Positions 22,768 to 48,718 of a stretch of 64,000 bases of DNA are shown here, piece after piece. The position numbers and the translations under genes were made by a program. This DNA is from an archaeon (lineage in GTDB: Archaea; Hydrothermarchaeota; Hydrothermarchaeia; JALTZZ01). Under the pieces are notes generated by a model that saw only the letters and a list, made by a program, of their open reading frames with translations, searched no databases and had not been told where the DNA came from. The stretch is from assembly GCA_027051165.1 (NCBI GenBank), contig JALTZZ010000035.1, forward strand, positions 4,870 through 68,869. Reading direction: 5' to 3'. Each line of letters opens with the position of its first letter. The stretch's first letter is position 1.

Positions 22768-22773
22768 CCTTGA

Positions 22774-24249: not shown

Positions 24250-24262
24250 TGCTTTCTACCCC

Positions 24263-26164: not shown

Positions 26165-26165
26165 T

Positions 26166-26468: not shown

Positions 26469-26475
26469 ACCCCTT

Positions 26476-27423: not shown

Positions 27424-28489
27424 CAGCTACTGCGGTTATTCCAAGATTTATAAGAGCTAATGGTAGTAGATACTTCCAGTAAAATGTTGGAATACTGTGG
27501 AGCCTTGCCCTCGGAAGTGTCATTCTTATCCACATTAAAACAAACATTATTGCAAGAGCCTTAGCAACTATTACGCCGAACTGAATAGCCCATTTAACTA
27601 CTGTATATGCAAAGCCTGATAGGAAGTTCTCAAGGAAGCTGAGAACGTATCCAAGCCCAGGAAGATGCCAACCTCCAAAGAACAGGAGAACGGCGAGCAT
27701 GCTTCCGAATACCATGTGAATGTATTCGGCAAACAGCAGCATTGCAAACTTCATTCCACTATATTCCGTATGAAAGCCAGCTATGAGCTCAGACTCGCTT
27801 TCCGGCATGTCAAACGGTATTCTCGACATCTCTGCAATGCTCGCTACGAAGAATACAAAGAATCCAAGAGGTTGCAGAATTATAATCCACTTTGGTATTA
27901 TGCCGAAGATATATTCGGTCTGATACTTTACAATATCAAAGACGTTTAGAGAGCCGACAACAAGGACAACACCCATTATGCTGAGCACAAGCGGTATCTC
28001 GTAGCTTAAATTTAGAGCCGCAGCCCTCATCGCTCCGAGCAAAGAGTATTTGTTGTTGGATGCCCACCCAGCCATTATTACTGGAATTATCGAGAGGCTT
28101 GCTAATGCGATTATGTAGAGGAGAGCAACGTTTAAATCTGCTAATATAAGACCATCCGCAAGTGGCATTGCTGCAAAGGGAAGAACGGCAAATGCAAATG
28201 CAAATACTGGGGCTAACGTAAATATCAATCTATCAGCAGCATAAGGTATAATGTCCTCTTTCTGTATAAGCTTTGCACCATCCGCAAGCGGCTGAAGCAG
28301 ACCATAGGGTCCAGTTCTGTTTGGACCATATCTGACATGTATTCTTGCGGCAACCTTTCTTTCAACCCAAGTAAGGAAGAGGACCATTAAAGATGCATAA
28401 AGAATTATAAAAAGACCTACTACTACACCCTTTGATATTCCAAGCAGTATTTTATTCGACATTATGTAGTCCACGAGCTCAGCTACCAT
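27407..28489 (-). CDS. nuoH: Complex I-like subunit H.
   Basis: 360-aa polytopic NuoH-type protein, with position in the operon consistent. Confidence 0.85.
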   Translation of the reverse strand: MVAELVDYIMSNKILLGISKGVVVGLFIILYASLMVLFLTWVERKVAARIHVRYGPNRTGPYGLLQPLADGAKLIQKEDIIPYAADRLIFTLAPVFAFAFAVLPFAAMPLADGLILADLNVALLYIIALASLSIIPVIMAGWASNNKYSLLGAMRAAALNLSYEIPLVLSIMGVVLVVGSLNVFDIVKYQTEYIFGIIPKWIIILQPLGFFVFFVASIAEMSRIPFDMPESESELIAGFHTEYSGMKFAMLLFAEYIHMVFGSMLAVLLFFGGWHLPGLGYVLSFLENFLSGFAYTVVKWAIQFGVIVAKALAIMFVLMWIRMTLPRARLHSIPTFYWKYLLPLALINLGITAVAVAVVG

Positions 28490-28495
28490 TTCGCA

Positions 28496-29647
28496 TCACC
28501 TATCTATATCCCCCATAACGATATCTATGCTTGCAAAGCTTAGCAGAAGATCCGGTATAAGCAGATTCTTGTTAAAATGTGGAAAAGCTGCTAAATTTGC
28601 AAAAGCCGGTGTTCTAAACTTAATTCTATACGGTTTATCGCTTTTTCCATCACTTATCAGATATACAGCCAGCTCTCCTCTTGGGGATTCTACCCTTGCA
28701 TACACCTCTCCAGCAGGAGGTTTTATAACCTTAGGAACCTTAGCCCTAATCTCACCATCTGGCAATTCTCTTAAAGCCTGTCTAACAATTCTTATGCTCT
28801 CCTTTATCTCATCAATCCTCACCATTACCCTTGCGTAAACATCCCCTTCTTTTCTTGTCACAATGTCAAAATCGAATCTATCATATATACAGTATGGATC
28901 TACCTTTCTTATATCATAAGCTACGCCACTTGCCCTTAAATTTGGTCCTGTTAATCCAAGGTTAATAGCCTCTTTTGCACTCACCTTTGCAACGCCCTGA
29001 AGTCTGTCAAGTAGTATTTCGTTCTCATTAATGTAGTTTTCATAATCCACAAGCCTCTTTTCTATAATATTAAGCGTTTTTTTACACTGCTCTACAAATT
29101 TTTCGCTAACATCTCTTTTAACACCACCAATTCTCATGTATGAATATAGAAACCTTGCACCAGACATCTCCTCAAGCAGATCAAGAACCATCTCTCTTTC
29201 TCTAAACCCATACATCATTATTGTCCAAGAGCCAAAATCTGCTCCAAATGTTGCAATAAATATAAGGTGACTCGCAATTCTCTGCAGTTCTGCGGCGATT
29301 ATTCTCAAGTAGTTGGCTCTCTCTGGAACTTCAATGCCCATAAGTTCTTCAACTGCAAGACAGTAAACAAGATTGTTGTTCATCGCAGAAAGGTAGTCCA
29401 TCCTATCCGTTATCGGTATTATCTGCGGATAAGTTCTGTTTTCACATATTTTCTCAACGCCTCTATGAAGGTAACCTATTACCGGAATAATTTCTTTAGC
29501 CCTTTCACCTTCAAGCTTTAAAACAAGCCTGCAAACGCCATGGGTGCTTGGATGATGAGGACCCATATTTAATATCATTTCACCGTCTTTTTCCTCAACT
29601 TCTAAACCTTCAATATTGTATTTCATTTCATCACCCCTTCTTCTCAA
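28496..29647 (-). CDS. nuoD: Complex I-like subunit D (49 kDa, NiFe-hydrogenase large-subunit-like).
   Basis: GPHHPSTHGV and RIEGHL-like motifs. Length is 383 aa. Confidence 0.9.
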   Translation of the reverse strand: MRRRGDEMKYNIEGLEVEEKDGEMILNMGPHHPSTHGVCRLVLKLEGERAKEIIPVIGYLHRGVEKICENRTYPQIIPITDRMDYLSAMNNNLVYCLAVEELMGIEVPERANYLRIIAAELQRIASHLIFIATFGADFGSWTIMMYGFREREMVLDLLEEMSGARFLYSYMRIGGVKRDVSEKFVEQCKKTLNIIEKRLVDYENYINENEILLDRLQGVAKVSAKEAINLGLTGPNLRASGVAYDIRKVDPYCIYDRFDFDIVTRKEGDVYARVMVRIDEIKESIRIVRQALRELPDGEIRAKVPKVIKPPAGEVYARVESPRGELAVYLISDGKSDKPYRIKFRTPAFANLAAFPHFNKNLLIPDLLLSFASIDIVMGDIDR

Positions 29648-30095
29648 ACCACTGTGCTGGCGTGAGCTTGAAATCCTTTCTTAGCGGAAAGCCTTTGAAG
29701 TCATGTGGCAAAAGTATTCTTCTCAAATCCGGGTGCCCCTCGTATACTATCCCCATCATATCGTAAGCTTCTCTCTCAAACCAGTCAGCGGCTTTCCATA
29801 TAGAATAGACACTCTTTATCTTTGGATCATCCTTCGGTATTATCGCTTTTATCTGAACGAGAACCCTTGTTTTTGCATTGAAGATGTGGTAAACACTTTC
29901 AAATCTGTCTTCATAGTCAACGGCACTTATGCATGAGAGGTATTCATATCCATTTTCATAGAGGTATTTACATACCTCGTATATATCATCTCTATTTATC
30001 GTTATAACAACTCTCCTCGCCCTTTGAATCTTTGCATCAAGTATTTTTTCACCAAACTTCTCCTTTAGCTGATTTATAATTTTATCTTCTTCCAT
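29631..30095 (-). CDS. nuoC: Complex I-like subunit C (30 kDa).
   Basis: 154 aa, in the position of the 30-kDa subunit. Confidence 0.8.
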   Translation of the reverse strand: MEEDKIINQLKEKFGEKILDAKIQRARRVVITINRDDIYEVCKYLYENGYEYLSCISAVDYEDRFESVYHIFNAKTRVLVQIKAIIPKDDPKIKSVYSIWKAADWFEREAYDMMGIVYEGHPDLRRILLPHDFKGFPLRKDFKLTPAQWFEKKG

Positions 30096-30107
30096 ACTTT
30101 TACCTCT

Positions 30108-30590
30108 CTATCTCTTTATCTCCCCTCTCCTTATTTTTTCTTGAAGCTTTATTATTCCGTATATAAGCCCCTCTGGTCTTGGTGGGCAACCGGGAACATA
30201 GACGTCTACGGGAATTATCTTATCAACTCCATCCACAACGCTGTAGCTATCGTAAAACGGACCACCGCTTATTGCACACTCTCCCATTGCGATCACGTAT
30301 TTCGGCTCCGGCATCTGCTCATAAAGACGTCTAACAAGAGGTGCCATCTTCTTCGTAACTGTTCCGGCGACTATCATTAAATCTGCCTGCCTCGGACTCG
30401 CTCTGAACAACATTCCAAAACGCTCGAAAGCATCAAAACGCGAGCAACCTGTAGCCATCATTTCTATAGCACAGCATGCTAAACCAAAGGTTAGTGGCCA
30501 CATTGCTCTTATTCTTGCCTCTCTTAATATGAACTCTTCAAGGAAATCCTTAATTTTTTGAAGGCTTAGCGTTAGTATTATAGGCTCCAT
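30108..30590 (-). CDS. nuoB: Complex I-like subunit B (20 kDa, N2-cluster subunit).
   Basis: [10 protein letters not shown], GxCAISGG and GCPPRPE motifs. Confidence 0.9.
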
Positions 30591-30596
30591 ATGTTT

Positions 30597-30962
30597 TTAC
30601 CTCCATTCAAGTGCTTTCTCACGCCAAGCATATATCAAGCCAAGGGCTAAGACGACAATGAATATTATACCCTCGATAAGCAGCAGCGTTATGTTGCCGA
30701 AACTCTTGAAGATCTCTGCCCATGGAAAGAGAACAACGGCTTCAACATCGAAGACCACGAAAAGCAGTGCAAAGAGGTAATACTGCACATCATAAGGTTT
30801 TCTCGCATCGCCGAAGGGAATAAGCCCGCATTCGTAGGTTAAATATTTATCTGGTTCCGGCTTTGTAGGTCTCAAAAGCCTTGATAGCAGAAACGTTATA
30901 ACGGGAAACACCATCGCAATTAAAGCAAACACCCCAATGGCTATATACTCCCCCGTTAGCAT
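30597..30962 (-). CDS. nuoA: Complex I-like subunit A.
   Basis: 121 aa with 3 TM helices and the YECG motif. It is the first gene of the operon. Confidence 0.85.
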   Translation of the reverse strand: MLTGEYIAIGVFALIAMVFPVITFLLSRLLRPTKPEPDKYLTYECGLIPFGDARKPYDVQYYLFALLFVVFDVEAVVLFPWAEIFKSFGNITLLLIEGIIFIVVLALGLIYAWREKALEWR

Positions 30963-31119
30963 GCTCGCACCTTCTTAACTCAAAGTTTTTATATTCTAAA
31001 ACCAAGGTATAGGGATAATACTTTTAATATATAAATTTAACGGTAGTTTCAATGAATCCAAAAAGATAAAAAGCTATAAAACATCTCTAAAAATTAATAT
31101 AACCTTATAAAAAGAGAAT
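30963..31119. promoter_or_regulatory. AT-rich divergent promoter region between the nuo operon (minus strand) and the FAH-family gene (plus strand).
   Basis: TATA-like tracts (tttatattc, tttaatatataaattt) and the divergent gene arrangement. Confidence 0.35.
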
Positions 31120-31893
31120 GTGGTGATGATTTTGAAAATATGCAGAGTCATGTATAAGAATAAAAAATGCTTCGGAGTAATTGATGGAGAGGATGTTTAT
31201 ATTTTTGATAGTTTTGAAAAAATAGAGAGCAATGAATATTTAGAATGTAAGAAAATGGTCAAACTTAAACTGCTCGCTCCAGTAGAACCGAGCAAAATTG
31301 TCTGTATAGGCTTAAACTACGTTGATCATGCAAAGGAGCTCGGGATGAAGATTCCAGAGGAACCTATAATATTCCTAAAGCCCCCCAGCAGTGTTGTGGG
31401 AGATCGGGAATACATAATATTACCAAGTTCTTCAAGTAGAGTAGATTATGAGGCTGAGCTCGCAGTGGTAATCGGCAAGCGGGGAAAGAACATTCCAGAA
31501 AAAGACGCTTATAAGTATGTCCTCGGTTATACGTGCTTTAACGACGTAACTGCAAGGGATTTACAGAAAAAAGATGGTCAATGGACAAGATCAAAGAGCT
31601 TTGATACATTCGCTCCGATAGGTCCTTGGATAGTAACAAAAGACGAGATTAGGAATCCTCACAAGCTGGACATAAAGCTGATACTAAACAATGAAATAAA
31701 GCAGAATTCAAACACAAAAAATTTAATATTTTCCATTCCCAAGCTCATATCTTTTATTTCAGAGATAATGACTCTCGAACCATTTGATGTTATAGCCACT
31801 GGCACTCCTCCGGGTGTTGGACCCTTAAAAAGAGGAGATACTGTAAAGGTGCATATAGAAAAGATTGGCACGCTAACCAACTACGTTCTTTAG
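31120..31893 (+). CDS. Fumarylacetoacetate hydrolase (FAH) family hydratase/isomerase.
   Basis: GLNYVDHAKELG, DYEAELAVVIGK and GYTCFNDVTARDLQ. Confidence 0.85.
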   Translation: MVMILKICRVMYKNKKCFGVIDGEDVYIFDSFEKIESNEYLECKKMVKLKLLAPVEPSKIVCIGLNYVDHAKELGMKIPEEPIIFLKPPSSVVGDREYIILPSSSSRVDYEAELAVVIGKRGKNIPEKDAYKYVLGYTCFNDVTARDLQKKDGQWTRSKSFDTFAPIGPWIVTKDEIRNPHKLDIKLILNNEIKQNSNTKNLIFSIPKLISFISEIMTLEPFDVIATGTPPGVGPLKRGDTVKVHIEKIGTLTNYVL

Positions 31894-31917
31894 TTTTTTA
31901 TTTTATTATTTTTTATT

Positions 31918-32442
31918 TTAAACAGAGTATATAAAAACCGCTATAGATATGGCAAAAATTATTGTGTAAAATATTTTTTCGTAAAAGACTTTTTCTGTAG
32001 CCTTTACTAAAGTTTTTTCAACGACTTCTTTTTTAAGGGATTCTAATGCAATACCCTTCTTTGCATGCACAACTTCTTCTCCTGCTTTAGCTCTGGCTGC
32101 ACGATGCGTTATTTCAATAATCTTGTATGCAGAAGCCATTGATGTTGTTGATGATAAAATTAGCGATATAATATACCTTTTCTTCTCTATACCTTTTATT
32201 ATTGAAAGAAGACTTGAAATCCAGCTTCTCGCATAATCTTCATTCAACCTTACAGTGTTAACCTCCTTTTCTCCCCTGTTTATCTTCTTAATCTCGACTA
32301 TACCTTCCTTTTCCATCTTCCTTAATACCTTAAAAACTTGTTAATAATCTTTTTTTATCAATTTTGATATCTGATATATGTTCATCTCGCCATTTTCTAT
32401 AAGAACTTTTATTATTTTATCCCTTGTTGAAAGCTTCAGCAT
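31918..32442 (-). pseudogene. Membrane-anchored winged-helix regulator interrupted by a single in-frame TAA (complement of 32341-32343). It reads MLKLSTRDKIIKVLIENGEMNIYQISKLIKKDY*QVFKVLRKMEKEGIVEIKK... and ends with a C-terminal TM helix.
   Basis: Hand translation shows the 33-codon upstream segment and the 132-aa ORF (31918-32316) are in the same frame, separated by one stop. The combined sequence forms a complete HTH plus wing. Confidence 0.5.
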
Positions 32443-32452
32443 CGCTTAAATA

Positions 32453-33592
32453 ATGGATTTTGAAATATATAAAATCATGTTTGACGTAGCTATAGTAGGT
32501 GGGAGCTCGACAGGCTTGATAGCTGCGAGAGAGCTCTCAAAGCATGGTTTAAGAGTGTGCGTCCTTGAAGAGCATGAAATAGGTGAAGTAGTATGCTCTG
32601 GGCTGATAAGTGTAAACGGTGTTAAGGAGCTTGGTATAAAGCCGGAGAACGTTGAAAATATAATAAGAGGTGTGAGATTTGTATCTCCGAGCAATGTTGA
32701 AATATATGCACATTCAAATATAGACAGGGCTTTTGTAGTTAATAGGGGGCTCTTCGACAGGCAGATTGCTGAGGAAGCTCTTTCAAGCGGAGCTAAGATA
32801 TTTGAGAAATTTAGAGCTAAAAAAATAGCTTTTAAAAATGATTATGTTGATATTAACGGTGAGATAAGGGCTAAGATTGTTCTCGGCTGCGATGGTTTAA
32901 AAAGCATTGTTGCAAGAGCGTGCTCTTTAAATCCTCCGAGAAGAGTTGTTGCCTCTGCAAAAGCAGTATTTAAAAACGCAGACTACCTTCAAGAAGATGT
33001 TGCAGAAGTCTATTTTAGGGATTATGCCAAGGGATTTTTTGCATGGATTCTGCCAAGGGGAAAATGTGTTGAAATAGGTGTGGGTGTTAGAAAAGCTAAT
33101 TTAAGACTTGCATTAGAGAGATTTCTTAAGGAGAGGGGCTTAGAATTAAAGAGCTTTCAAACAGGGGCTTTTCCAGTGGAAGTCGTCTCGGATACGTGTG
33201 GATATAGGGCTATGATCGTTGGGAACTCTGCCGGACAAGTTAAGGCAAGCACCGGAGGAGGTGTTATTACCGGCGGCATCTGTGCAAAAATTGCGAGTAA
33301 AGCATGCCTTAAGTCCTTGGAAGAGGATAAATTCGATAAAGACTTTTATAAAAAGAATTACGAAGATATTTGGAAAAAAAGCCTTCTAAGGGAGTTCTAT
33401 GCACATATTATAATAAGGGAGCTCTATGAAAGGCTCGATAAGCACAGCCTCGATGCCCTTTTTAAAATAGCGAGAGAAGAGGGGATAGATAAGATAATGA
33501 TAAAATATAGAGACACAGACAAACCTTCAAAATTTTTAGATGAGATAATGAAAAAAGAAAAAATTATTTCATTTCTTTCGCAGTTTATTTAG
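32453..33592 (+). CDS. Geranylgeranyl reductase family FAD-dependent oxidoreductase (digeranylgeranylglycerophospholipid reductase-like).
   Basis: FDVAIVGGSSTGLIAAREL dinucleotide fold, with GCDG and GNSAG motifs. Start is possibly ATG 32477. Confidence 0.85.
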   Translation: MDFEIYKIMFDVAIVGGSSTGLIAARELSKHGLRVCVLEEHEIGEVVCSGLISVNGVKELGIKPENVENIIRGVRFVSPSNVEIYAHSNIDRAFVVNRGLFDRQIAEEALSSGAKIFEKFRAKKIAFKNDYVDINGEIRAKIVLGCDGLKSIVARACSLNPPRRVVASAKAVFKNADYLQEDVAEVYFRDYAKGFFAWILPRGKCVEIGVGVRKANLRLALERFLKERGLELKSFQTGAFPVEVVSDTCGYRAMIVGNSAGQVKASTGGGVITGGICAKIASKACLKSLEEDKFDKDFYKKNYEDIWKKSLLREFYAHIIIRELYERLDKHSLDALFKIAREEGIDKIMIKYRDTDKPSKFLDEIMKKEKIISFLSQFI

Positions 33593-36500
33593 TTCCTGTT
33601 TATCCTTATCCATACAACCTTTCTCTTTCCGGGCTCTGCTTTTATAGTAACTGTCTTTTCTAAGAGTTTTTCTTCAAATAAGTCAGGATCGAGCCACCTT
33701 GCCTTTACTGTTATTTCTTTATCTCTAATTTTAAATACACCATAGTTCTTTGTTCCTTTTGATTTAACAAGCATTGTTTTTGAGTATTTATTGACGAATA
33801 CGTCAACGTAGAGATCATCGTCGTCCAAATTTTCAACTATCACCTCTACTTCTGTTGGCAGTATATCCGCAAATATCTCGCTTATCTGCCTCTTCGCAGT
33901 GTCGCTTATATCAACGGCTATTATTTTTATCGGCTTTCTGCTCTTATCCACTCTATTATCTTTGAGAAACCCTAAAACACTTTTCGGAACACTGTCTTTA
34001 ACGTATATTATAGGTGCATTCATGTATTCGGATATCAAAACTGCTCTGGTGCTTATGTTTCTTCCATCAGTTACAACAATAACCTTTAGATCAAGCTTCT
34101 TCTTTTTGTAGGCTTTTGCAAGCTCTACCGCAGTTTCGTATCTCGTTTCGCCCCAAATTCTCTCAACCTCATACCTCTCTCTTAAATAGTTCTCTACTTC
34201 TTTTGATATAGCTTTTTCTCCGCCAACGATAATTACCTTCATTGGAGATATCTCATCTATTGCAAGCAGTGCACTTGAAACAAGCTCATCTGGCTTCGTA
34301 AGTATTATAGGATATCTGCTTATTTTTGCAAAGGCTATTGCAGCTACGGCATCTGCGGGTATATCCCCCCTTGCAAGAACTACAGTTCCAGAGTATCTGA
34401 ACTTCTCCAAAATCATCTTATTTGCAACCTCGTAGACATCTCCATCAATTTCTATAATATCCTTGGCTTCTATTCCTTCCGCAAATACAGGCTTATCCAT
34501 AAGAGCTAATATTGGATAGACACTTATTGGAGCTTTATAGAAAGTCTTATCCTCAAGTTTGTATTCCTTAATAAACAATTTCATGAACTTCGCATTTACG
34601 GTATTAATGCCACTCTCCACGGTAAATTCCTCTATTTTTCTCGGAGCTGGAGCTGCACCTCCTCCGCCTCCTCCACCAACTGCTGGCTGATAGCCCGAAA
34701 TAGCTACGGTTATACTCTTAGACACCTTTTCAGCATTTATACACGAAGCTTCTGCAGTAAAGGTTACGCTATTCTCGTTTGGAAGGTTAACTGTAAAGTT
34801 TATTGTTTTTGTCGTTTTTGGCTGAATATCTGTTGATTGAGCACCAAAGTTTATAAGCTTTATATAACATTCTTTTGCAATTTCACTTTCAATGTTTTCT
34901 ACATTTACGCTCACAACAACGCTTTCTCCTACCTCGAGCTTCCCATAAACGTCAATTTTTGTTATGTTAATTTTCGTATGGTTTAATACATGCAATCCCA
35001 CACTTTCGTTTGTTTCGTTTGCGTTGCTTGCATTCACCTTGAACAATAACGTATAGTTTCCTCTGCTTGCGAAAATTAGGCTAAATGTTTCATTCCAGCT
35101 TTCAAGGTAATCAAGCTTATCCAAGTGTCTACTCTCGTTTTTAACACCTGATACAAGAGATAGGGTCAAATTCTTTGCACTTGAATTTCCACCATTTTTA
35201 ACGATAATACCCATATTCAAGCTCTTATTTACAACCCAGTATTTTGGTGCATCTACATATATTATAAGCCATGGCTCATTTGAGTATACGATTGTTATGT
35301 TTGTGCTTGCATGCACAGTGTAGCTTCCCCTTATTATCTCTCCCCCAATCGCTCTCTCTATTAAATAGCTTAGGGTTGCGTTTATAGTATAGTTTCCAGT
35401 CCAGTTTGCTTTAAGTGTGAATTCCTCAACATAGCTCCCTATGCTCAGCTCGCCCAAGCTCTTTGATGTATTCTCTCCGCTGATGTTGCTTGGTAATATA
35501 ATTTCAATTGTTGCATTTTTTATTCCGATATTACTTACATTTATATAAGCCTTTAATCTAAAATCAGCATTAACCGGATACTTTTCTGGTGCTTCTATGC
35601 TTAGATTTACATTTGGAACAACAACCACATTTCCACCACTTGGATCTATTGTTATGTTGTTGTATAAAAGCCTAACGTTAAATCCTGAGATAACCCCTGT
35701 TTCGTTTGTAAATGCCGTCCAGTTTACGGTTATCGTCTCGTTGGGGGATAGAATCTTTGGAGTGGTAAACTTAACCTGATCGTATATGTAGACAAATTTA
35801 TCCTTCGGCGGTATAAGGGTTACGTTCATTATACTTACATTCCTGTTTTCTTTGTTTGTGATGTTCACTTTAACTGTGAAGTTTACGAATGGATAGACAA
35901 CGCTCGGCTCTACCGCTATTGTTCCTTTAACAACCCCTGGGACTATTTCAATCGTCTTGCTGAACTCCTTGGATATTCCTCCATAGCTAACCTTAGCCAC
36001 TACTGTATAATTGCCCAGAGGTATCGGATTCTGGTTGTGATCTCCTACTATCCATGTAACCTCATAGTCCATTTCTCCGTTCAGCGGTGTGTTCTCAAAC
36101 CTCAAGTTCGGATTTTCCTCCGGATTAAATATCTTATAGAGAGTTCCTCCTCTTGTAATAGAAATTGTTATGTTTCCGTAGTTTATGGTGGTGTAGCCTT
36201 CGTTTTTAAGTTTAACTTTTATATCAGCAGCCTCACCATTTATAAGGCTCTGATTTATTATTATATCTACGATGCTCAGATTTACGATCTCTATACCTTT
36301 TGTTATGTAGTCAACGACATTGTTGCCTTCAACAAGCTTTGCTCTAAGCGTATATGCTCCAGTTGGCAGATAGTAGCCGGCTATTCTTCCGTCCCAAGAA
36401 TACTCCTTATAAACGCTTCCAAGGATGTTGAAGTTCTCCTCAGCTATAATTCCTATTGTGCTGTTTGTGGAGTTTAGAATCTCTAAAACAAGCTTCACAT

Positions 36501-39500
36501 TCTTCTCAGTTTCCGAGAACATGTTTATGTATATCTTCATTGCTACACCGTATGCAAGCTCGCTTAAGCTCGTTCTCATGCTCGATATCCCTATAGGCTT
36601 CTCAGAAACGTTTATAAACATTTCTTTTTCTGCAGAGGATATTCCGTATTTGAGCTCTACTTTTATTCTATATACTCCGGGGGAATCAAATGTTATCAAA
36701 AATCCTTCTCTTTTAGTTGAATAGCTCGGCATCTTAACAGCTTTTGTTTCTACATTCGTGCACGTTATGTTGCAGACGTATAGAGAGAGGTTCGCATCAA
36801 GCTCTGGTGCAATGTTTATCAGGGTAACGTTTACCTCTGTGCTCATGTTTACAAAAGTCTTTTCCGGCATGTCTATTGACAGTATTCCAGCTCTCTCCAA
36901 GATAATATTTTTTCCTCCCTCAAGCACCGTTGTATATGATTCGTTTGCATCCGCATATTTAAGCTCATATTCTATAACGTTTGCACCATGGCTTCCGTTT
37001 ATCAGACTTTCCAGTTTCCAGAGCTTTGATATGTTATAAACCTCATCCTCATGCAGATATCTATTCAGTATTACTGTTCCCTCGGAGCCCGGCTGTATGT
37101 CTGTGAAGAATTTAACCCTGTATGCAAGTTCCTTGAGCTTAACGGTGCTGTTAGCACTTATTGAGAAGTTTATGTATATGCTTTCGCCGGGATAAGCAAC
37201 TCCTTTTGTGTTTACTTCAACATCTATCAGGTGCTCAAATCTAAGCTTTGCATACTTCCAAACATCTTTACCATCTATGCTCGCAGATACCTCAAGTATT
37301 ACATCCCCCTCTTCTATAGCAACGCTCTTCAGCTCAACGTATCCCTCGTATAGCCCGCTTAAGTAATTGTTCTCGCTAAGCGTTCCTTCAGCAATTATCC
37401 TTCCTTTGCCGTCCCATATCTTATAGCTTACGCTCTTTCCAGATAATAAATTGTTTGTAGTCATGTTTCTAAGATAAACAGCAATAAGCATTCCATTTCT
37501 TAAAATATCTTCACTTTCAGGTTCTTTAAATTCTATAAAAGCTGGAGATACGAGTATATCATCAAAGTAAACAGCATCGTTGAAGTATACCTTAACTCTA
37601 ACTCCGTCTGAGCTGTATAGATCGCTCCACTTCGGATTTGTTATGTCCTTTATTATATCTATGAAGCCGTTTCTGTAGCTTTTGTTATATACCGTAATAT
37701 TTTCTGAGTTTTCTGCAAGTAATCCTTCTTCTATAAAGACAAACACACCTCTATTTTTATCCAGCACCCTTCTTACCTTATAAAGCTCAGCTTTTATCTC
37801 ACCAGTAATATCAATGTCTTGCATATTAACCGCTGTGTAGTTTATTCTGAATCTGTTTTTTTGCTCAATAACGCTGTTGTATAGATCTTCCTTAAAGACT
37901 TTTACTCCGTTTACATATATATCAAATCCTGCAAGCTTTATTTCAGGATATACCTTCAAGACTTTCTCAAATGTGAATGTTACAAATTTGAGGTTGTCTG
38001 GATTTATATATGACACATTAACAACAAACGTGTAGTTCTTTGCATCTGGATCTATTGTAAGGTTTTCTCCAGAGAATATTGTAGTTGTAGGCTTGCCGTA
38101 TCTCCTCAGCGATATTTCACTCCATGAAATGTTTTTAACGTTCTCAACACCGTTTTTAAACACCTCTACAGATATGTTTACCGTTATGTTGAAGTATCCT
38201 AAGTTTATCACGTAGGGAACTATGGTTACATTTCCGCTCTCGTTTGAAACTTCCTTAACTGCTAAATTATCCTTTGTTACAAGCAGATCAACCGTGATCG
38301 GATTTACATAAAACATCTTCATAAATTCTGGTAGAATGTGGTCTACTGTAGCTCCTCTTGAATTTTCTATTTCAAAATATGGATTTCTGTATTTTATCCT
38401 TATAAAGACGCTATGATTCTGATCTATTATCGAATTCGCAGTATCCCATACAAACGTGAAGAACTCAGTTGTATTCGGCTTTATAAGCTTTTCATCCGTT
38501 GAAAACTCAAGCGTTCTTCCGCTTCTATCAACAACCTGATATATTATTGATGCATTTAAGCCGAGGAAGTATGCTAAGCATGTAACGTTACTCGTCTCTA
38601 CCCTGTTCTTGACCTCTAAGCTGAAGCTGTTCTTATCTCCGTAGTTAACAAATTTCTTTTCCATGCTAAATGATAGAAGCTCCACCGGGTGGAGTATCGT
38701 TATCTCCTTAGGATAGCTTATCCCTATTAAGCTGTTCTTGTAGTATACGTATGCATAGAGCGAGAAGTTACCTTCTACATAGTATGGTATATTTGGTATT
38801 ATATCGGTCTTATACCATAAACCGTCTTTGTATACGGCATCTACTTCATAGTATATTATGTTATTCTTTATTACCTTAAACGTTACCTTGTAATCCTTTG
38901 GATCTGAAACGTTGCGGAAATAAGTATAGGTTACCTTTTCTCCGGGTATATAGTAGCTTAAACATGAGAACATTCTTTCAACGATCTCAGCTGTTGTTTT
39001 TAATCCCTTAACAACCGTAAGCGTGCCGCCAAATCTATACGATGCTCTTCCATCGTAGCTAAGGTTTGCAGCTATGCTATAAGTTCCGCTCGCCAAAGCT
39101 AAAGAAAATTCATGTTCCGTAACAGAAAATGCTGGAAGGATTACGTTTCTTTCTCCATGAGAAGATGAGTTAACGTATAGAGTGAGCGTTGCGTTCATTC
39201 TTTCTCCAATGTTCTTTACTAAAACCTTTATCGTTGCATTGCTTCCCTCCTCAACTCCCTCTGGGATTTCTATTCCTATTATGCCGGCTTTTTCTAAGGT
39301 AAACGTTGTAGTGTTTTCAATTGTGTAATTTATTCCGTCTCTTTCAAATATTACGTAGGCAACTATTGTATTTATTCCGTAGGTTCCGTATCTCGCATTC
39401 TCAGCGTTCCAAGGTGAAATTTCTTTCAAAACGCTCTTATTAATCTGGAGAAATTCATCAACCGTAATGCTGTAGCTGCTGTTCACCTGCTCATAGCCGC

Positions 39501-40401
39501 GCCAGAATATTCCAGACCTTCCGTAGCCTACTATGTGCAGATCAAAGTTAGCGACGTTGGTAACGTTTATTATCGTAGCAACATCATCACCTGGGTAGCA
39601 AGACGTGCAGTTCGTGGAAATCAGGAGTTCTATCGGGCTTCTCACGTTTATATTTATTTCATCGCTTCCGAAGAAGACGCCTCTGCTTGTGTATGCCTTT
39701 ATTGTTAGCGAGCCTACTGAGTATTCGTTGTCAAGTGCTACGACAACGCTTGCGTTTCCGCTTGCATCTGTTGTGGCGTATAGAGTTTCTACGCCCGTAT
39801 CGAAGGTTACGTTGAAGCCAGAAGCATTGGTTCCGTTTCCATATTCTACGTGAGCTGTAAGCGTTATATTATCGCTTAGGAACGGCAAGGAGTTGCTCAC
39901 ATATAGCTCAAGCACGAGGTTGGCTACGGTTAAGTTTCTATCAGAAAATCTGCTTGCGTTCTCGCTTGCATAGCTTAAGTTTGCTAAGATAGCGTAGACT
40001 CCAGCACCTAATTCGCTCGTGTTGAACTCCACTTCTACGTTCTTCTTGGAGAATCCGCCTATCGTTGTTTGGGAGCTGTATATTCTGTGCCACGTTCCGT
40101 TGAATGCGTATAGCGTTAGGTTTGCATTCTGAGCAGCGCCGAGGTTTGTAATGCTTATGCTGGCTGTAACGTTTTCTCCGAGTTTAACAGCATGCTCGCT
40201 CAGCTTGACGCTTTCTATTCCGATCTGCTCCAAAATAAAGCTTGTTTCGTTTTCTATGCTGTATTCAGTATCTCCCGTCCTGTTGACGCTTCTGAAGAGT
40301 ATCTTAACCTTAGCCACGTTTGTTCCGTTTGTTCCCATTTCAGCTAAGCTTGTGTTCCATGAGCCTATGCTTATAGATAGGCTTTCACCAGGCTTTAGCA
40401 A
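33589..40401 (-). CDS. Giant (2270 codon) secreted surface protein. It has multiple CARDB/Ig-like beta-sandwich repeats, dense N-x-S/T sequons, a Gly7-Ala-Pro linker and three C-terminal CWB2-like cell-wall-binding modules. It is in frame with, and probably the continuation of, the 40420-43422 ORF.
   Basis: Internal repeats (e.g. three blocks ...E.G.I.I..PE....N.T..V...N......A.L.LY). C-terminus VIIVGGEKAISKEVENYL...ERIWGETRYETAVELAK. The ORF-track start is a TTG with no obvious ATG or promoter. Confidence 0.85.
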   Translation of the reverse strand: MLKPGESLSISIGSWNTSLAEMGTNGTNVAKVKILFRSVNRTGDTEYSIENETSFILEQIGIESVKLSEHAVKLGENVTASISITNLGAAQNANLTLYAFNGTWHRIYSSQTTIGGFSKKNVEVEFNTSELGAGVYAILANLSYASENASRFSDRNLTVANLVLELYVSNSLPFLSDNITLTAHVEYGNGTNASGFNVTFDTGVETLYATTDASGNASVVVALDNEYSVGSLTIKAYTSRGVFFGSDEININVRSPIELLISTNCTSCYPGDDVATIINVTNVANFDLHIVGYGRSGIFWRGYEQVNSSYSITVDEFLQINKSVLKEISPWNAENARYGTYGINTIVAYVIFERDGINYTIENTTTFTLEKAGIIGIEIPEGVEEGSNATIKVLVKNIGERMNATLTLYVNSSSHGERNVILPAFSVTEHEFSLALASGTYSIAANLSYDGRASYRFGGTLTVVKGLKTTAEIVERMFSCLSYYIPGEKVTYTYFRNVSDPKDYKVTFKVIKNNIIYYEVDAVYKDGLWYKTDIIPNIPYYVEGNFSLYAYVYYKNSLIGISYPKEITILHPVELLSFSMEKKFVNYGDKNSFSLEVKNRVETSNVTCLAYFLGLNASIIYQVVDRSGRTLEFSTDEKLIKPNTTEFFTFVWDTANSIIDQNHSVFIRIKYRNPYFEIENSRGATVDHILPEFMKMFYVNPITVDLLVTKDNLAVKEVSNESGNVTIVPYVINLGYFNITVNISVEVFKNGVENVKNISWSEISLRRYGKPTTTIFSGENLTIDPDAKNYTFVVNVSYINPDNLKFVTFTFEKVLKVYPEIKLAGFDIYVNGVKVFKEDLYNSVIEQKNRFRINYTAVNMQDIDITGEIKAELYKVRRVLDKNRGVFVFIEEGLLAENSENITVYNKSYRNGFIDIIKDITNPKWSDLYSSDGVRVKVYFNDAVYFDDILVSPAFIEFKEPESEDILRNGMLIAVYLRNMTTNNLLSGKSVSYKIWDGKGRIIAEGTLSENNYLSGLYEGYVELKSVAIEEGDVILEVSASIDGKDVWKYAKLRFEHLIDVEVNTKGVAYPGESIYINFSISANSTVKLKELAYRVKFFTDIQPGSEGTVILNRYLHEDEVYNISKLWKLESLINGSHGANVIEYELKYADANESYTTVLEGGKNIILERAGILSIDMPEKTFVNMSTEVNVTLINIAPELDANLSLYVCNITCTNVETKAVKMPSYSTKREGFLITFDSPGVYRIKVELKYGISSAEKEMFINVSEKPIGISSMRTSLSELAYGVAMKIYINMFSETEKNVKLVLEILNSTNSTIGIIAEENFNILGSVYKEYSWDGRIAGYYLPTGAYTLRAKLVEGNNVVDYITKGIEIVNLSIVDIIINQSLINGEAADIKVKLKNEGYTTINYGNITISITRGGTLYKIFNPEENPNLRFENTPLNGEMDYEVTWIVGDHNQNPIPLGNYTVVAKVSYGGISKEFSKTIEIVPGVVKGTIAVEPSVVYPFVNFTVKVNITNKENRNVSIMNVTLIPPKDKFVYIYDQVKFTTPKILSPNETITVNWTAFTNETGVISGFNVRLLYNNITIDPSGGNVVVVPNVNLSIEAPEKYPVNADFRLKAYINVSNIGIKNATIEIILPSNISGENTSKSLGELSIGSYVEEFTLKANWTGNYTINATLSYLIERAIGGEIIRGSYTVHASTNITIVYSNEPWLIIYVDAPKYWVVNKSLNMGIIVKNGGNSSAKNLTLSLVSGVKNESRHLDKLDYLESWNETFSLIFASRGNYTLLFKVNASNANETNESVGLHVLNHTKINITKIDVYGKLEVGESVVVSVNVENIESEIAKECYIKLINFGAQSTDIQPKTTKTINFTVNLPNENSVTFTAEASCINAEKVSKSITVAISGYQPAVGGGGGGGAAPAPRKIEEFTVESGINTVNAKFMKLFIKEYKLEDKTFYKAPISVYPILALMDKPVFAEGIEAKDIIEIDGDVYEVANKMILEKFRYSGTVVLARGDIPADAVAAIAFAKISRYPIILTKPDELVSSALLAIDEISPMKVIIVGGEKAISKEVENYLRERYEVERIWGETRYETAVELAKAYKKKKLDLKVIVVTDGRNISTRAVLISEYMNAPIIYVKDSVPKSVLGFLKDNRVDKSRKPIKIIAVDISDTAKRQISEIFADILPTEVEVIVENLDDDDLYVDVFVNKYSKTMLVKSKGTKNYGVFKIRDKEITVKARWLDPDLFEEKLLEKTVTIKAEPGKRKVVWIRINRN

Positions 40402-40419
40402 GATGTCTCTAGTCTTGAG

Positions 40420-43400
40420 CTACTCGTCATATCTCTGGGCTAAGTATCCTTGCCAGTATATGCCAGATATCTCGGATCTGTCTATCTTAACCGCAAAGGG
40501 AGCGATGTTCCTTATGGTTGCGTTTATATTTACCGTATCTCCCGGCTCGTATCTGCTCCTATCAGTCCTTACTAAAACCTCTACAGGACTTCTAACCGTT
40601 ATTGTTGTTTCATTAGCACCGTAGTAGATACCAGAGGAAACCTCAGCTCTTACTCTTAAACTGCCCGTTTCATTTAAAATGACTGTTATCTTAGCCACTC
40701 CGCTTGAGTTTGTGAAGTTCTCATATACATCGCTATCTAAATAGAACTTTACAGATGTGTTATTTAAAGGAGTGCCGTTTGCATATCTAACCTCTGCAAG
40801 AGCTGTTAACCTCTCGCTGAGGAAGAATTCATTATCAACTCCTGTTTCGTTTAATGTTAGCAGATTAACGATTATATTGTTAACATGCACACTTGTTGTT
40901 TTCGTTGAATTTCTGAAAGCACCGAATTCAAACCATGCTTTTATAACCTTGTTTCCAGCTTCACTACAGCTTACGTTAAAGCTTACCTCCTTATAATAAT
41001 CAACTTCAACGTTCTTTGTCCAGCTACTGCCGCAGAAGCTGAGCGTCAGATTTCCAGTAACGTTTGTCAAGCTCTGAAGAGAAACTGTAACATTAAAGTC
41101 TTCATCTATCTTAACATACTTAGGTGAGCTTATATTTACTATGCCAGCTTCCCATATCCATATTCTCTCTGTAGATTCTGTTACTGCCGATTTTCCAGAA
41201 GTTAGATTCTGGTATTTAATCTCAACTACTACATCGTTGTATCCCTGAGTGCCGTTTATAAGATTTAAAACTTCCCAAGGAACCTCTATTCTCTCGCTTG
41301 TTCCATTTGCAATAAATTTATTTAAAGATATATTTAAAGGTAAGAACAGCTCTTTTCCCTGCTTTAACACCTTCAATGTTAATTTTTCCAGCCACAGACT
41401 TTCATCGGTAGGATTTGAAATTAATACACTTATATTTGCTGTTTCCCCAAGATAATATGAAAGTTTATCCGTTGAAACATCAGCACTTATTGGATGATCA
41501 AAGAACAGTCTTAGATGCTTCCAAAATTTACCATTTTTCTCTTTAATTTTTAGATAAACAAACCCTTCCTCTGCCGGAATCTCCTTATTAAATGAAATCT
41601 CACTGTAATACAACCCGCCCAAATCTTTAAGATCTCCCTCTGCTATAACTCTTCCTTCAGAATCCCAGACAAGATACTCTAAATTGTAACCACTTTCTGG
41701 CGTGTAATCATTGTCATTTACTATCTTCGTATAATTTCTTACATAAAGACTTATGTAGTTTTTAGATAGATTAAGCTCGGCAGGATAACTCTCAAAATCT
41801 ATGAAAAGATTCTTGTATGACCTCTCATCTAAGAGCGTATAATTTTCAAATGAAAAGTTTAATTTAACAATAAATACATCAGAATCGTAGATAACCTTAG
41901 GATTGATCTCTTCTTTGTATAAAATTACCTTATCCGTGAAGTTCCCCTGATTAACCGTTACTGGTTTTGTATAGTTTACGACATAAACACAGTTGCCTAC
42001 TAAAAAAGTTCCGTTCTGCGACTTTAACAGCTTGCACGATCTTATCTCTACAGTTAAATTTCCTTCTTTGCTGCTTCCGAGGTTTTCTATAGAGTAGTTA
42101 ACACTGAAGGTGCTTTTTCTCTTATAAATGTCATTTTCTGAGAAATCTTCAACGGAATAGTCAAATCTATTTATTTCAATTCTCATGTCCGCTGGCTTTA
42201 CATAAGAATAAACAAGAAGGGTTTTGTTGAGTGTAAAGCTTACAAGACTTTGATTAGCCTCAGGATCAGGGTTTATGTATGTAACGTTTACTTCCAGCGT
42301 ATAGTTCTTTGCATCTCCATGAAGTGAAAAGTTTTTACCCTCAAAAATCGTTAACTTTGGTATTCCATAGCGCCTTTCAGCCGTGCTGTTTATCCATGTT
42401 ACATTCCCTATGTAAAATATTCCAGAATTGTTATATTTGTAAATATTAACTGTAATGTTCATTGTTACGTTATAAAATCCTATATTGTTGACATAAGGAC
42501 GTATTGTAACATTTTCACCGGTTTTATTTGGAACACTTTCAACTTCTATATTCTTATAAAATGCCTTTATATCAACACTGATTGGATTAATATAAAATGT
42601 TTTTGTGAAATTGTAGATAAGGGTGTTGTTGTCTTGGAAAGCCTTATCCGCACCGTATACAGATGAACCCTTGCTGTTCCCGATTTCCAAATATACGTTC
42701 TCATAGTTTATTCTTATAGCTATGGTGTGGTTCTGATCTATCTGCGCATTATATGTGCTCCAATTAAATTTGAAGAACTCTGTTGTATTGGGTTTTATTG
42801 GTCTCAATTCTGTAGTATAATTTCGAATTCTACCCATTCTATCCACAATTTCATACTCTATGGTTACATTTAATCCTAAATGATACCCCAAACAGGTTGT
42901 ATCGTTTGTGTATGCTTTGTTTTTAACTACAACCAAGAATTCATTAGTTTCTCCGTAGTTAAGCGTTTTCTTTGACATGTTGAATTTTAAAAGTTCTACA
43001 GGATGCTCTATTCTTATCACTGTTGTATTTAATGATTCGGATGTGCTATTTTTAATCACTGCCTCCAAAATGAAATCACCTTCAATGTAGTATGGTATAT
43101 TCGGTATCTCTCCACTATAGAACCAAACACCCTTATTCTCATCATATTCCGCTGGATACTCATAGGTAAGCCATGTTCCATGAATAAGATCGAATTTCTT
43201 TATTATAAACTCTACAGTATATCCCCCTGACGGAGGTGATGCATTTACCTCTAATCGAACATTTTCACCGGGAACGTAAAATCCAAAAGCGGGATTGCAT
43301 GCGAATTGTCTTGCAGATATGTAGGGTTCATTTATATACATGGCATGCACATTAGCTATGAGAAGCATTATAGCAAAAAATATGAATAATATGGTAATGT

Positions 43401-43422
43401 TTATACTTCTCCCCTTTTCCAT
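40420..43422 (-). CDS. 1000-codon paralogous surface-protein ORF with an N-terminal signal/TM segment. It terminates at the TAG complement of 40420-40422, immediately followed in frame by the 2270-codon ORF.
   Basis: Signal peptide MEKGRSINITILFIFFAIMLLIANVHA. Shares ~400 aa of blocks with the downstream ORF (IPNIPYY.EG.F, HPVELL.F.M.KK.NYG, KPNTTEFF.F.W, IDQNH...IRI.Y.N.Y.EI.NS.G, DAKNYT..VNV.YINPD). Confidence 0.85.
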   Translation of the reverse strand: MEKGRSINITILFIFFAIMLLIANVHAMYINEPYISARQFACNPAFGFYVPGENVRLEVNASPPSGGYTVEFIIKKFDLIHGTWLTYEYPAEYDENKGVWFYSGEIPNIPYYIEGDFILEAVIKNSTSESLNTTVIRIEHPVELLKFNMSKKTLNYGETNEFLVVVKNKAYTNDTTCLGYHLGLNVTIEYEIVDRMGRIRNYTTELRPIKPNTTEFFKFNWSTYNAQIDQNHTIAIRINYENVYLEIGNSKGSSVYGADKAFQDNNTLIYNFTKTFYINPISVDIKAFYKNIEVESVPNKTGENVTIRPYVNNIGFYNVTMNITVNIYKYNNSGIFYIGNVTWINSTAERRYGIPKLTIFEGKNFSLHGDAKNYTLEVNVTYINPDPEANQSLVSFTLNKTLLVYSYVKPADMRIEINRFDYSVEDFSENDIYKRKSTFSVNYSIENLGSSKEGNLTVEIRSCKLLKSQNGTFLVGNCVYVVNYTKPVTVNQGNFTDKVILYKEEINPKVIYDSDVFIVKLNFSFENYTLLDERSYKNLFIDFESYPAELNLSKNYISLYVRNYTKIVNDNDYTPESGYNLEYLVWDSEGRVIAEGDLKDLGGLYYSEISFNKEIPAEEGFVYLKIKEKNGKFWKHLRLFFDHPISADVSTDKLSYYLGETANISVLISNPTDESLWLEKLTLKVLKQGKELFLPLNISLNKFIANGTSERIEVPWEVLNLINGTQGYNDVVVEIKYQNLTSGKSAVTESTERIWIWEAGIVNISSPKYVKIDEDFNVTVSLQSLTNVTGNLTLSFCGSSWTKNVEVDYYKEVSFNVSCSEAGNKVIKAWFEFGAFRNSTKTTSVHVNNIIVNLLTLNETGVDNEFFLSERLTALAEVRYANGTPLNNTSVKFYLDSDVYENFTNSSGVAKITVILNETGSLRVRAEVSSGIYYGANETTITVRSPVEVLVRTDRSRYEPGDTVNINATIRNIAPFAVKIDRSEISGIYWQGYLAQRYDE

Positions 43423-43513
43423 GATTATATCAAGACACTCTGCATGATATATAAATCTTATCTTTTTTCAGTTTAAAATTTGAATGTTGCAAAATGTATA
43501 ATTATGAAGTTTT

Positions 43514-44374
43514 TCACAATCTACTTCTAAAAATAAAAGCCAAATAAGGGAAAAGGAAAATTTCAAATGCAACGCAAACAATACATGGGAATGTTGCTTC
43601 TTTTCCAAAAATAGAATAGGAGAGGACTATTGCAAGTCCAAGGTTTTTATATGAAGAAAACAATGTGTAGTTTACTGCATCTCCTCTGCTTATTTTTAAA
43701 AATTTTGACAAAACATAGATCACTGTCGCTGGGACAAATGTTCTCAGAATGCATAAAAAAGAAAGAAGTATTGAGGCTTTGCTCATCAGCATTTCTCTGC
43801 TAACCCCTATAACAGAGTATATCATTAGAAAAAACATTATTTTAACCATAAATTCCTCATACTTCTCAAAATTTTTATAAAACGGTAGTCTTACTATGAT
43901 TTTTGAAACTAAAAGTGGAACAAGGATAAGATAAACAAGAGATTTGAAAATTTCGTATGAATTTATTTCGAGCATATGAGCAATGATGGGCGAGATTACT
44001 AAAGAAAATATGTATAGAAGAGCGTTTGCTATTAGAGCAGTTTTCACATCACCGCCAAGGATCCTTGAAAACGGAACTATGGCTATTGCTGGAGGAACAA
44101 CAGCCATTATATAGAAACCTTCATCACACATTGTGCATGCATACTCTTTTGCATATAGTCCAATAAGAATTATTATTCCAGAGAGAAAAGCAAAATTAAG
44201 CAAAAATATATAAAAAATTTTCTTAACTTCAAAATTTAAGTCTATTTTTATCTTTGTAACTGATAAAGTCATCGCAACAGCTAAATAAAAAATGAGATAG
44301 TCAACAAGTCTCTGTGCAAAATTTGGAAAAAGAAATCCAATCAAAATTGCAGAGAGAAAAACAACCGCACTCAT
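43514..44374 (-). CDS. Polytopic membrane permease (possibly bile-acid:Na+ symporter / AEC-like superfamily).
   Basis: 286 aa with 8-9 hydrophobic helices. The family assignment is tentative. Confidence 0.4.
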   Translation of the reverse strand: MSAVVFLSAILIGFLFPNFAQRLVDYLIFYLAVAMTLSVTKIKIDLNFEVKKIFYIFLLNFAFLSGIIILIGLYAKEYACTMCDEGFYIMAVVPPAIAIVPFSRILGGDVKTALIANALLYIFSLVISPIIAHMLEINSYEIFKSLVYLILVPLLVSKIIVRLPFYKNFEKYEEFMVKIMFFLMIYSVIGVSREMLMSKASILLSFLCILRTFVPATVIYVLSKFLKISRGDAVNYTLFSSYKNLGLAIVLSYSIFGKEATFPCIVCVAFEIFLFPYLAFIFRSRL

Positions 44375-45409
44375 GTTAGCACTTTTTTAATTATATTTTC
44401 CGCTTTCTCTCTGGTAATCTCTATATGCTCTATAATTGTATATCTCTCTGGTTTAACTTCCTTAGCTTTTAAAACTGCCTCTACTATGTCATCTATGCTC
44501 AGTCCAAGCTCTTCAATATTACCGATATCTATCGGAGCACCTATATTCTTTGCAAAGCTCTTTACTCTTCTCCACCGTGCTTTCTGCATGTATAGAGAGA
44601 TTACTGTGGCTATTCCAACTTTTTCTCCATGAAGAGCTTTATTCTCTTTAACAATGTCCATAGCATGGGCTATTTTGTGCTCGCTACCGCTTGCGGGTCT
44701 TGAGCTGTTTGCAATGCTTATTGCCACACTGCTTGCTATCAGAGCTTTGATTATCTTCTTGAATATATCGGTATCTCCTTTTTTTATCCTTTTTATATCT
44801 CTTCCAACCTTTAAAGCTGTTTTTGCACTTAGAAGTGCAAGTTTTACAGAATATTCGCTTATTTCCTCGTTTTTTTCTTTATTGGCAAGCCTCCAGTCCC
44901 TTACTGCCGAGAACTTCGCCACAAGATCGAGAAGTCCGCTTACCGTTAATCTTATAGGAGCTTTCGATATCACTTCAAGATCCGCTACTATTGCGAGTGG
45001 AGCTTTAGCCTTTACCGATGCCGGCATTCTACCAATTCTTATCGAGGCTAATGGAGAAACAAGTCCATCGTGACTTGCTGCAGTTGGAACGCTTATATAT
45101 TCTATCCCGCACCTTGCACTTGCAAGCTTTGCAACGTCTATAACTTTACCGCCTCCGCAGGCAGCGATAAGATTTATATTTTTTGCTTTTACCGTATCTA
45201 CAACCTCGTTAACCGCAGAGATCTGTGAGCTACGAACTATTTTGTGGCGTGCTCCCAATATCTCGCACAGATCTTTCCCAGCAATTTTGTAGGTTTTTTC
45301 TCCAGATAAAACGATGATTTTTCCTTTTATTTTTAGCTTTTTTATTATTTTATCTATCTTTTTAATAGAGCCCTTTTCAACAACAACCATTCTCGGAAGC
45401 TCTATCATG

Positions 45410-45426
<17 letters not shown>
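44371..45426 (-). CDS. egsA: Glycerol-1-phosphate dehydrogenase [NAD(P)+] (archaeal lipid backbone).
   Basis: GGGKVIDVAK, PTAASHDG and the metal-binding His residues. Length is 351 aa. Confidence 0.9.

Positions 45427-48718
<3,292 letters not shown>

Follow-up and report, generated by a model that had tools for sequence, protein, structure and literature searches.

The cell wall binding 2 (CWB2) proteins of C. difficile, such as high-molecular-weight (HMW) SlpA, Cwp6 and Cwp8, are known to combine a signal peptide, a variable exposed part and the CWB2 module. In-frame UAG codons within archaeal genes are familiar from pyrrolysine decoding, which is found in methanogens and certain further archaea; genomes of this kind have pylT and pylS/B/C/D, seldom use TAG as a stop and carry it in frame in methyltransferase genes. 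Where a large surface-protein gene in a natural prokaryotic population exists as an ordinary nonsense (amber) allele or a young pseudogene, it has a premature stop made by one transition, an intact allele in a closely related population and an undecayed downstream sequence. In the current analysis a 64,000-nucleotide (nt) stretch of DNA from an uncultured archaeon (GenBank assembly GCA_027051165.1, contig JALTZZ010000035.1, positions 4,870 to 68,869), referred to below as the window, has been studied with respect to a giant surface-protein gene that is interrupted by a single in-frame TAG at codon 1001. This is very probably a recent allele derived from CAG by a C-to-T transition (Q1001*), the gene being a young pseudogene or a strain variant. 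It resembles the ordinary nonsense alleles in all the respects named above and shows no difference in kind from them, apart from a poorly sampled host lineage and an unusually long gene (9.8 kb). The nonsense event is an ordinary one of a known kind.

The in-frame stop and the domain around it

Translation of window positions 43500 to 33589 on the minus strand reveals a single frame from 43422 to 33589 with one internal stop, which is preceded by SGIYWQGYLAQRYDE and followed by LKTRDILLKPGESL. The stop, a TAG on the complement of 40420-40422, is the sole separator of two entries in the mechanical list of open reading frames (ORFs). The upstream ORF (43422-40420; 1000 residues) starts with ATG and carries a signal peptide, and the downstream ORF (40401-33589; 2270 residues), which is in the same frame, is given a TTG start and has the CWB2 end. 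When read through, the gene comprises 3277 sense codons. The frame remains open for 2276 codons after the TAG in DNA of 38% GC, which is far beyond chance. The retranslation and the ORF list reproduce the coordinates, frame and peptides of a first-pass annotation made from the letters alone, which had described ORFs of 1000 and 2270 codons in one frame, split only by this TAG.

Comparison of the protein with itself aligns residues 812-1169 with residues 1130-1474, and the alignment crosses residue 1001 (33.6% identity over 363 residues, E-value 7e-45). This bears out the earlier proposal that a repeat found intact later in the protein aligns straight across the stop and that the stop is therefore intra-domain. 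Residues 35-907 in turn resemble residues 1480-2322, a large internal duplication. An uninterrupted homologue of 2746 residues, referred to as P0002 (GCA_054014855.1, contig JBPMGB010000021.1), also aligns over the stop and does so in two registers, residues 922-1198 of the window protein matching residues 1284-1557 of P0002 (E-value 5e-44) and residues 812-1172 matching residues 347-702. When five copies of the repeated unit are aligned residue by residue, the stop column falls in a variable stretch and is occupied by Y, V, A or G in the remaining copies. The stop sits after a conserved RSGI(Y/F)W strand and before a D-x-x-L-x-P-G ... PW(N/D)xSxAxxGTYG block.

The structure of the intact paralogous unit at window 38998-39735 has been predicted with AlphaFold2 from a six-row alignment. 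The model is all-beta with a mean pLDDT (predicted local distance difference test) of 90.2. When transferred to this model, the stop falls in the segment that joins strands 66-78 and 88-96, at the centre of a beta-sandwich formed by approximately residues 33-147. Foldseek matches for the model are tandem sandwiches of immunoglobulin (Ig)-like or fibronectin type III (FnIII)-like kind, such as transglutaminase C-terminal barrels and RbmA, and are taken to indicate the generic fold and nothing more. By the alignments and the predicted structure, the stop lies within a domain and not at a gene boundary, and it leaves the CWB2 module and two thirds of the protein downstream.

The sense allele in a neighbouring vent sample

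An exact look-up of the product of a GGR-like gene (32453-33592) that adjoins the giant gene has returned three contigs. One of these, referred to as L029 (ENA ERZ23495365, REYS20-1_SAMN12239301_METAG-scaffold_7971, 9574 bp), aligns without gaps to window 31909-41482 and differs from it at 14 positions (99.854% identity). Codon 1001 is CAG (Gln) in L029 and TAG in the window; the stop is thus one base from a sense codon in a near-identical intact allele. The frame of L029 is open for 2630 codons from the normal TAA to the contig end, which exceeds the 2276 codons available past the TAG. The CAG of this 99.85%-identical allele shows the uninterrupted gene to be the normal state, and a recent nonsense mutation, which the first-pass annotation had offered as one of three options, is supported. 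That annotation's reading of an interrupted gene is not refuted by L029, since the CAG allele comes from another sample and not from the reads of this one.

The two samples are described in Table S1 of Zhou et al. 2022 (PMC9793634). S141 (SAMN12239309, SRR10312489) was taken at 1599 m and S012 (SAMN12239301, SRR10312503) at 1319 m, both at Brothers volcano. S141 is accordingly the population with the TAG allele, and S012 the one with the CAG allele. The tree file of the same study contains a near-identical pair of metagenome-assembled genomes (MAGs) from S012 and S141 beside S141_metabat2_scaf2bin.124, which fits the presence of two alleles and is no proof of the window's MAG.

The differences between L029 and the window are distributed unevenly. 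Over 33589-40757 (7.2 kb) the nonsense site is the only one, and the adjoining 280 nt (40758-41037) hold 11 more, with six codons changed and four silent; a further two fall in a 132-residue ORF at 31918-32316. Twelve of the 14 differences lie within a span of 616 nt, an arrangement reached in 0 of 200,000 random placements along the contig. In the nuo region of the same two populations (window 23263-27164 against contig L031) 19 of 3902 positions differ (0.49%), fairly evenly spread. The divergence between S141 and S012 is in this sense a mosaic, and it looks as if the 3' part of the surface-protein gene had recently recombined or undergone a sweep, with a hypervariable patch in addition. Gene conversion or a template of the diversity-generating retroelement type has been considered as the origin of the clustered substitutions and rejected, as no DNA-level paralogue or template is found in the window and as transitions prevail among the changes, which show no specificity for adenine. 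The locus illustrates cleanly how micro-diversity between vent deposits close to one another can affect a cell-surface protein.

Explanations considered for the stop

According to the preferred explanation, a single C-to-T transition would have converted Gln codon 1001 (CAG) into TAG in the population of the S141 deposit. Cytosine deamination is a common source of C-to-T changes in thermophiles. Termination at the TAG would release an N-terminal fragment of 1000 residues with the signal peptide and without the anchor, and the remaining 2,276 codons would stay untranslated or, if translated, would give a product that could not be exported. We infer a loss of function, the TAG allele being null or else severely truncated or hypomorphic. 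The mutation is considered very recent because the downstream 6.8 kb are base-for-base identical to the intact allele of the sister strain, and its age explains the intact downstream frame, there being a single difference in 7.2 kb. For annotation purposes the entries of 1000 and 2270 residues are to be combined into a single gene that is marked as carrying an internal stop (Q1001*), and are to be treated neither as two proteins nor as a recoding event.

Certain points weigh against this explanation. L029 ends at window 41482 and so covers the intact allele from its 3' end to a point 1.9 kb short of the 5' end. There is no decay downstream of the stop, so that sequence alone cannot tell a fresh pseudogene from an allele with low-level read-through. 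All TAG-bearing assemblies rest on one sequencing run. The survey for suppressor tRNAs and pyrrolysine (Pyl) genes described below covers the 64-kb window only.

An unlikely explanation, and the best of the competing ones, is that the TAG arose as an error of sequencing or consensus calling, or that it represents a minority variant within a mixed population of S141 whose dominant gene is intact. It would be in keeping with the existence of a sense allele one base away in a nearby sample, with the mosaic divergence, in which identical tracts alternate with divergent ones in a pattern suggestive of recombination between co-occurring strains, and with the breaks of the Logan contigs inside the gene (at 38522, 39961 and 44147), as are seen with strain mixtures or repeats. 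Against it stands the agreement among assemblies of S141. The Logan contigs of run SRR10312489 are 100% identical to the window; one of them (L001) corresponds to window 39961-44147, includes the TAG and is identical over 4187 nt, and others correspond to 23866-38522 (L028/L035) and 44118-48460 (L034). At least two assemblers have thus given TAG on the S141 reads, in the window's source contig and in L001, and a third assembly is indicated by the ENA record of the products of 1000 and 2270 residues. The 1000-residue product is also recorded on a contig of the 20-50 kb class and in ENA, and the junction is presumably present on that contig. ENA scaffold_1084 of SAMN12239309 (40,454 bp) shows 100% identity to the window in the parts that were read; provided that it is colinear, it would reach from about 23841 to beyond 64000 and would be expected to carry the TAG. 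An exact look-up of the 2270-residue protein (P0001) and of the 286-residue upstream neighbour in assemblies returned no record.

Two or three assemblies of the same run therefore agree on the TAG at the level of assembly. The TAG has thus not come from a single assembler, and a pure assembler error is unlikely because the independent Logan assembly of S141 carries the same codon; a random Illumina substitution error would not become the consensus in several assemblies. The sequencing error that had been listed among the options is by these findings made unlikely in its assembler form. The TAG variant would accordingly seem to be real and dominant in S141, and not a minor or erroneous base.

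A variant of the nonsense explanation, in which the TAG allele is a selected state, is improbable. S141 would have lost the anchored form of the protein, for example in escape from a virus or predator using it as receptor, and near-cognate insertion of Gln at UAG-C would continue to supply traces of a protein identical to the wild type, which would make the allele a 'soft' knock-down. Such a state would be compatible with the apparent dominance of the allele in a single deposit, with an intact allele at a distance of about 0.5 km and with the hypervariable patch just upstream.

It is highly improbable that the TAG is decoded and that a useful full-length protein is made by programmed or context-dependent read-through, by an amber-suppressor tRNA or by means of pyrrolysine. 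The perfectly intact state of the 2276 downstream codons could speak for decoding, but it is fully explained by recency. Release factors of the eRF1 type terminate weakly where TAG is followed by C, and the base after the present stop is C; TAG-C also ends ordinary genes in the window, including nrdJ. When UAG is occasionally read through by near-cognate decoding, Gln is the residue that tends to be inserted, and at this codon it would restore the wild-type residue of S012. Programmed recoding sites keep their stop at one position in related sequences and have a stimulatory RNA element (hairpin, pseudoknot or PYLIS-like) shortly after it. Above all, the present stop is not conserved in relatives. 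The closest allele has a sense codon, and the position belongs to a variable loop that holds Y, V, A or G in the paralogues and in P0002. No stimulatory RNA structure has been detected in the 120 nt past the stop (40300-40440, minus strand; -27.6 kcal/mol against -27.9 ± 3.2 for shuffled sequences, z = 0.10), and no family was matched in an Rfam search of the window. Programmed read-through, which had been put forward as a second option, is disfavoured by these results and by the ordinary use of TAG as a stop.

TAG ends nine of the 48 other long ORFs (19%), against 20 for TAA and 19 for TGA. The nine include nrdJ (17258-20623) and the GGR-like gene, the two examples on which global recoding had earlier been called unlikely, and seven more. 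Conserved genes end in TAG where their Pfam models end: the Pfam alignment of an FAA hydrolase reaches residue 256 of 257, and in an ODP lactamase, the GTP cyclohydrolase folE2, NuoB and the ribonucleotide reductase barrel the model end is reached just before the TAG. A six-frame scan for single stops with at least 120 open codons on each side has revealed no other TAG-split gene in the window; the one other TAG case is the boundary of two adjacent nuo genes, each with its own start. No tRNA was found in a search of the window, and no Pyl-related domains or pyl genes are present among its ORFs. The locus is thus unlike pyrrolysine systems in that TAG is a frequent and correctly placed stop, a single in-frame TAG occurs in 64 kb, the sister strain has Gln at the codon, the gene is not a methylamine methyltransferase and pyl genes are missing from the window. 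On these grounds, which cover the 64-kb window, global recoding, pyrrolysine and read-through elements are regarded as improbable, and phase variation by slipped-strand mispairing was rejected on inspection, there being no repeat tract at the stop. This TAG has no bearing on the genetic code or translational recoding.

The signals for expression and export have been compared for the two parts. The TATA-box-like element ahead of the upstream ORF, TTTATATA, has a spacing that fits an archaeal promoter with leaderless or short-leader mRNA, its position being what suggests a promoter role. No suitably placed TATA box precedes TTG 40401, the nearest such element lying about 340 nt upstream within coding sequence, and no Shine-Dalgarno-like sequence is seen ahead of this TTG or of the first in-frame ATG. 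Apart from the signal peptide (residues 4-31) no segment of the protein is strongly hydrophobic, and the first 80 residues past the stop are not hydrophobic (maximum 15-residue hydropathy 0.8). Because a Shine-Dalgarno-like sequence, a well-placed TATA box and a signal peptide are all lacking, TTG 40401 is not a credible independent start. The giant protein has 144 N-x-S/T sequons (4.4 per 100 residues, against 0-0.8 in six cytoplasmic proteins of the window), and most of these N-glycosylation sites lie, with the CWB2 module, on the downstream product. The downstream two thirds, rich in sequons and bearing CWB2 without a signal peptide, is therefore built for the cell exterior with no means of export. 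The first-pass annotation had placed the signal peptide on the upstream ORF only and the wall-binding C-terminus on the downstream ORF only, had found no ATG or promoter for the downstream part and had held that it cannot function alone; all of this agrees with the present results.

Two genuine, separately expressed genes, one for a secreted protein of 1000 residues and one for a wall-bound protein of 2270 residues from TTG 40401, can be dismissed as extremely improbable: NCBI and ENA records do list two proteins (P0003, 1000 residues; P0001, 2270 residues), but the break lies inside a beta-sandwich domain, the second product has most of the sequons and the CWB2 module without a signal peptide or hydrophobic segment, its nearest TATA-like element and missing Shine-Dalgarno sequence are as described, and the S012 allele and P0002 are continuous.

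The giant protein, its relatives and its neighbourhood

The product of the uninterrupted gene is predicted to be a secreted, N-glycosylated surface protein of about 3,277 residues. It comprises tandem Ig-like, CARDB-like and Big_1-like beta-sandwich domains followed by a CWB2 anchoring module. The CWB2 family (PF04122) has been assigned by Pfam in two stretches with an E-value of 7e-17 and 62.2 bits, above the curated cut-off of 24.9. Sequence matches in the PDB are to C. difficile SlpA HMW, Cwp6 and Cwp8 (7acy, 5j72 and 5j6q; E-values 5e-14 to 1e-8), and the combination of signal peptide, variable exposed part and CWB2 module is shared with these proteins. The window protein differs from them in its archaeal host, in having two CWB2 stretches by Pfam where three tandem repeats, which form a pseudo-trimer and bind a cell-wall polysaccharide, are canonical, in an exposed beta-sandwich tandem of about 2,900 residues that is unrelated to the low-molecular-weight part of SlpA, in its dense sequons and in a C-terminal tail of about 90 residues after the CWB2 region (from about 33864 to the stop), which P0002 is without. 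None of the curated NCBIfam S-layer models is matched by the protein, and no C-terminal membrane anchor is seen, there being no hydrophobic segment besides the signal peptide. Archaeal S-layer proteins are major envelope proteins that form a lattice and mostly end in a membrane anchor or a PGF-CTERM/archaeosortase signal. The window protein is therefore better described as a giant surface or adhesin-like protein than as an archaeal S-layer protein proper.

P0002 is the only homologue, besides the gene's own downstream ORF, that was returned for the full read-through query in a word-indexed search of 5.8 billion proteins. When the paralogous unit was run exhaustively with HMMER against 1.84 billion representatives, the matches were the two ORFs of the window, P0002 and three marginal sequences (E-value above 1e-4). 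No close relatives were found with the junction segment among the GTDB species genomes and JGI metagenome contigs, and the conserved C-terminal region, when searched by alignment against the JGI metagenomes, gave no match. P0002 uses the same domain vocabulary, partly in the same order, with 35-54% identity over most of its length. The Gly-rich linker and the CWB2 end are common to both proteins, and none of the copies in P0002 of the domain split by the TAG is interrupted. Its gene lies beside RtcB/archease and succinyl-CoA ligase genes, and module order and copy number differ; P0002 is therefore regarded as a homologue and not as a positional orthologue. As judged from these searches, the protein family, or its repeat module, seems to be nearly an orphan. 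A sequon-rich archaeal surface protein of about 3,300 residues with a bacterial-type CWB2 module and one homologue found is of modest interest in itself.

The giant gene is flanked by genes for an SBF-like transporter and an Fe-ADH-family protein and by the GGR-like gene. The transporter and the Fe-ADH-family protein occupy the upstream side, and an identification of these upstream neighbours as sucCD, as beside P0002, was rejected. The GGR-like gene encodes an FAD-dependent oxidoreductase on the plus strand and is convergent with the giant gene, the stop codons overlapping by 4 nt (33589-33592), so that no intergenic terminator region lies between them. The features of the gene are listed in Table 1.

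Table 1. Positions of features in and around the giant surface-protein gene (window coordinates; L029 is the contig from sample S012)
Feature	Position	Strand	Remarks
Whole giant surface-protein gene	33589..43422	-	3277 sense codons and one internal TAG
Premature TAG stop, codon 1001	40420..40422	-	window base 40422 is A, G in L029 (coding strand T and C)
TATA-box-like element TTTATATA	43448..43455	-	3' end lies 26 nt ahead of ATG 43422
N-terminal signal peptide MEKGRSINITILFIFFAIMLLIANVHA	43342..43422	-	only strongly hydrophobic segment of the protein
Beta-sandwich (Ig-like) domain split by the stop, about 130 residues	40210..40596	-	residues 943-1071
Intact paralogous copy of the split domain	39274..39645	-	residues 1260-1383; basis of the structure model, pLDDT 90.2
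Cluster of 11 S141/S012 substitutions	40758..41037	-	residues 796-889; 336 nt upstream of the nonsense site
CARDB domain	35005..35262	-	PF07705, E-value 4e-7
CWB2 repeats, presumed anchoring module	33952..34431	-	PF04122
Gly-rich linker ahead of the CWB2 repeats	34648-34680	-	
TTG, start of the downstream ORF by the ORF caller	40399..40401	-	

Other contents of the window

The window also encodes MCM, the PolD large subunit DP2, a thermosome protein, RPA and an 11-subunit Nuo-like complex. Among 185,579 GTDB species genomes, the best match of MCM (46499-48715) is 52% identical and comes from an unclassified archaeon, the MAG S141_metabat2_scaf2bin.124 of the same deposit; the next matches, of 40-45%, are from Hadarchaeales and Aenigmatarchaeota. 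The host lineage is thus poorly sampled. As called from TTG 46499, the MCM ORF (46499-48718, plus strand) overlaps a lumazine-synthase-like ORF on the opposite strand (46171-46704) by about 200 nt. Its true start is probably further downstream, because homology begins only at about residue 65-88.

The Nuo/Fpo-like complex is encoded on the minus strand at 21370-30962 by homologues of NuoA, B, C, D, H, I, J, K, L, M and N, and no NuoE/F/G module is visible in the window. Two proteins encoded on the minus strand contain inteins with a LAGLIDADG homing-endonuclease domain, identified by the Pfam families Intein_splicing and LAGLIDADG_3. These are the ribonucleotide reductase (17258-20623; residues 247-670) and PolD DP2 (55433-60244; residues 908-1350). 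An accessory gene cluster on the minus strand (6991-7691, 9094-9555 and 5460-6779) has a GC content of 0.30-0.31, which is below that of the rest of the window, and comprises a pair of HEPN and minimal-nucleotidyltransferase genes, a PIN-domain protein and an AAA_14/DUF4143 ATPase.

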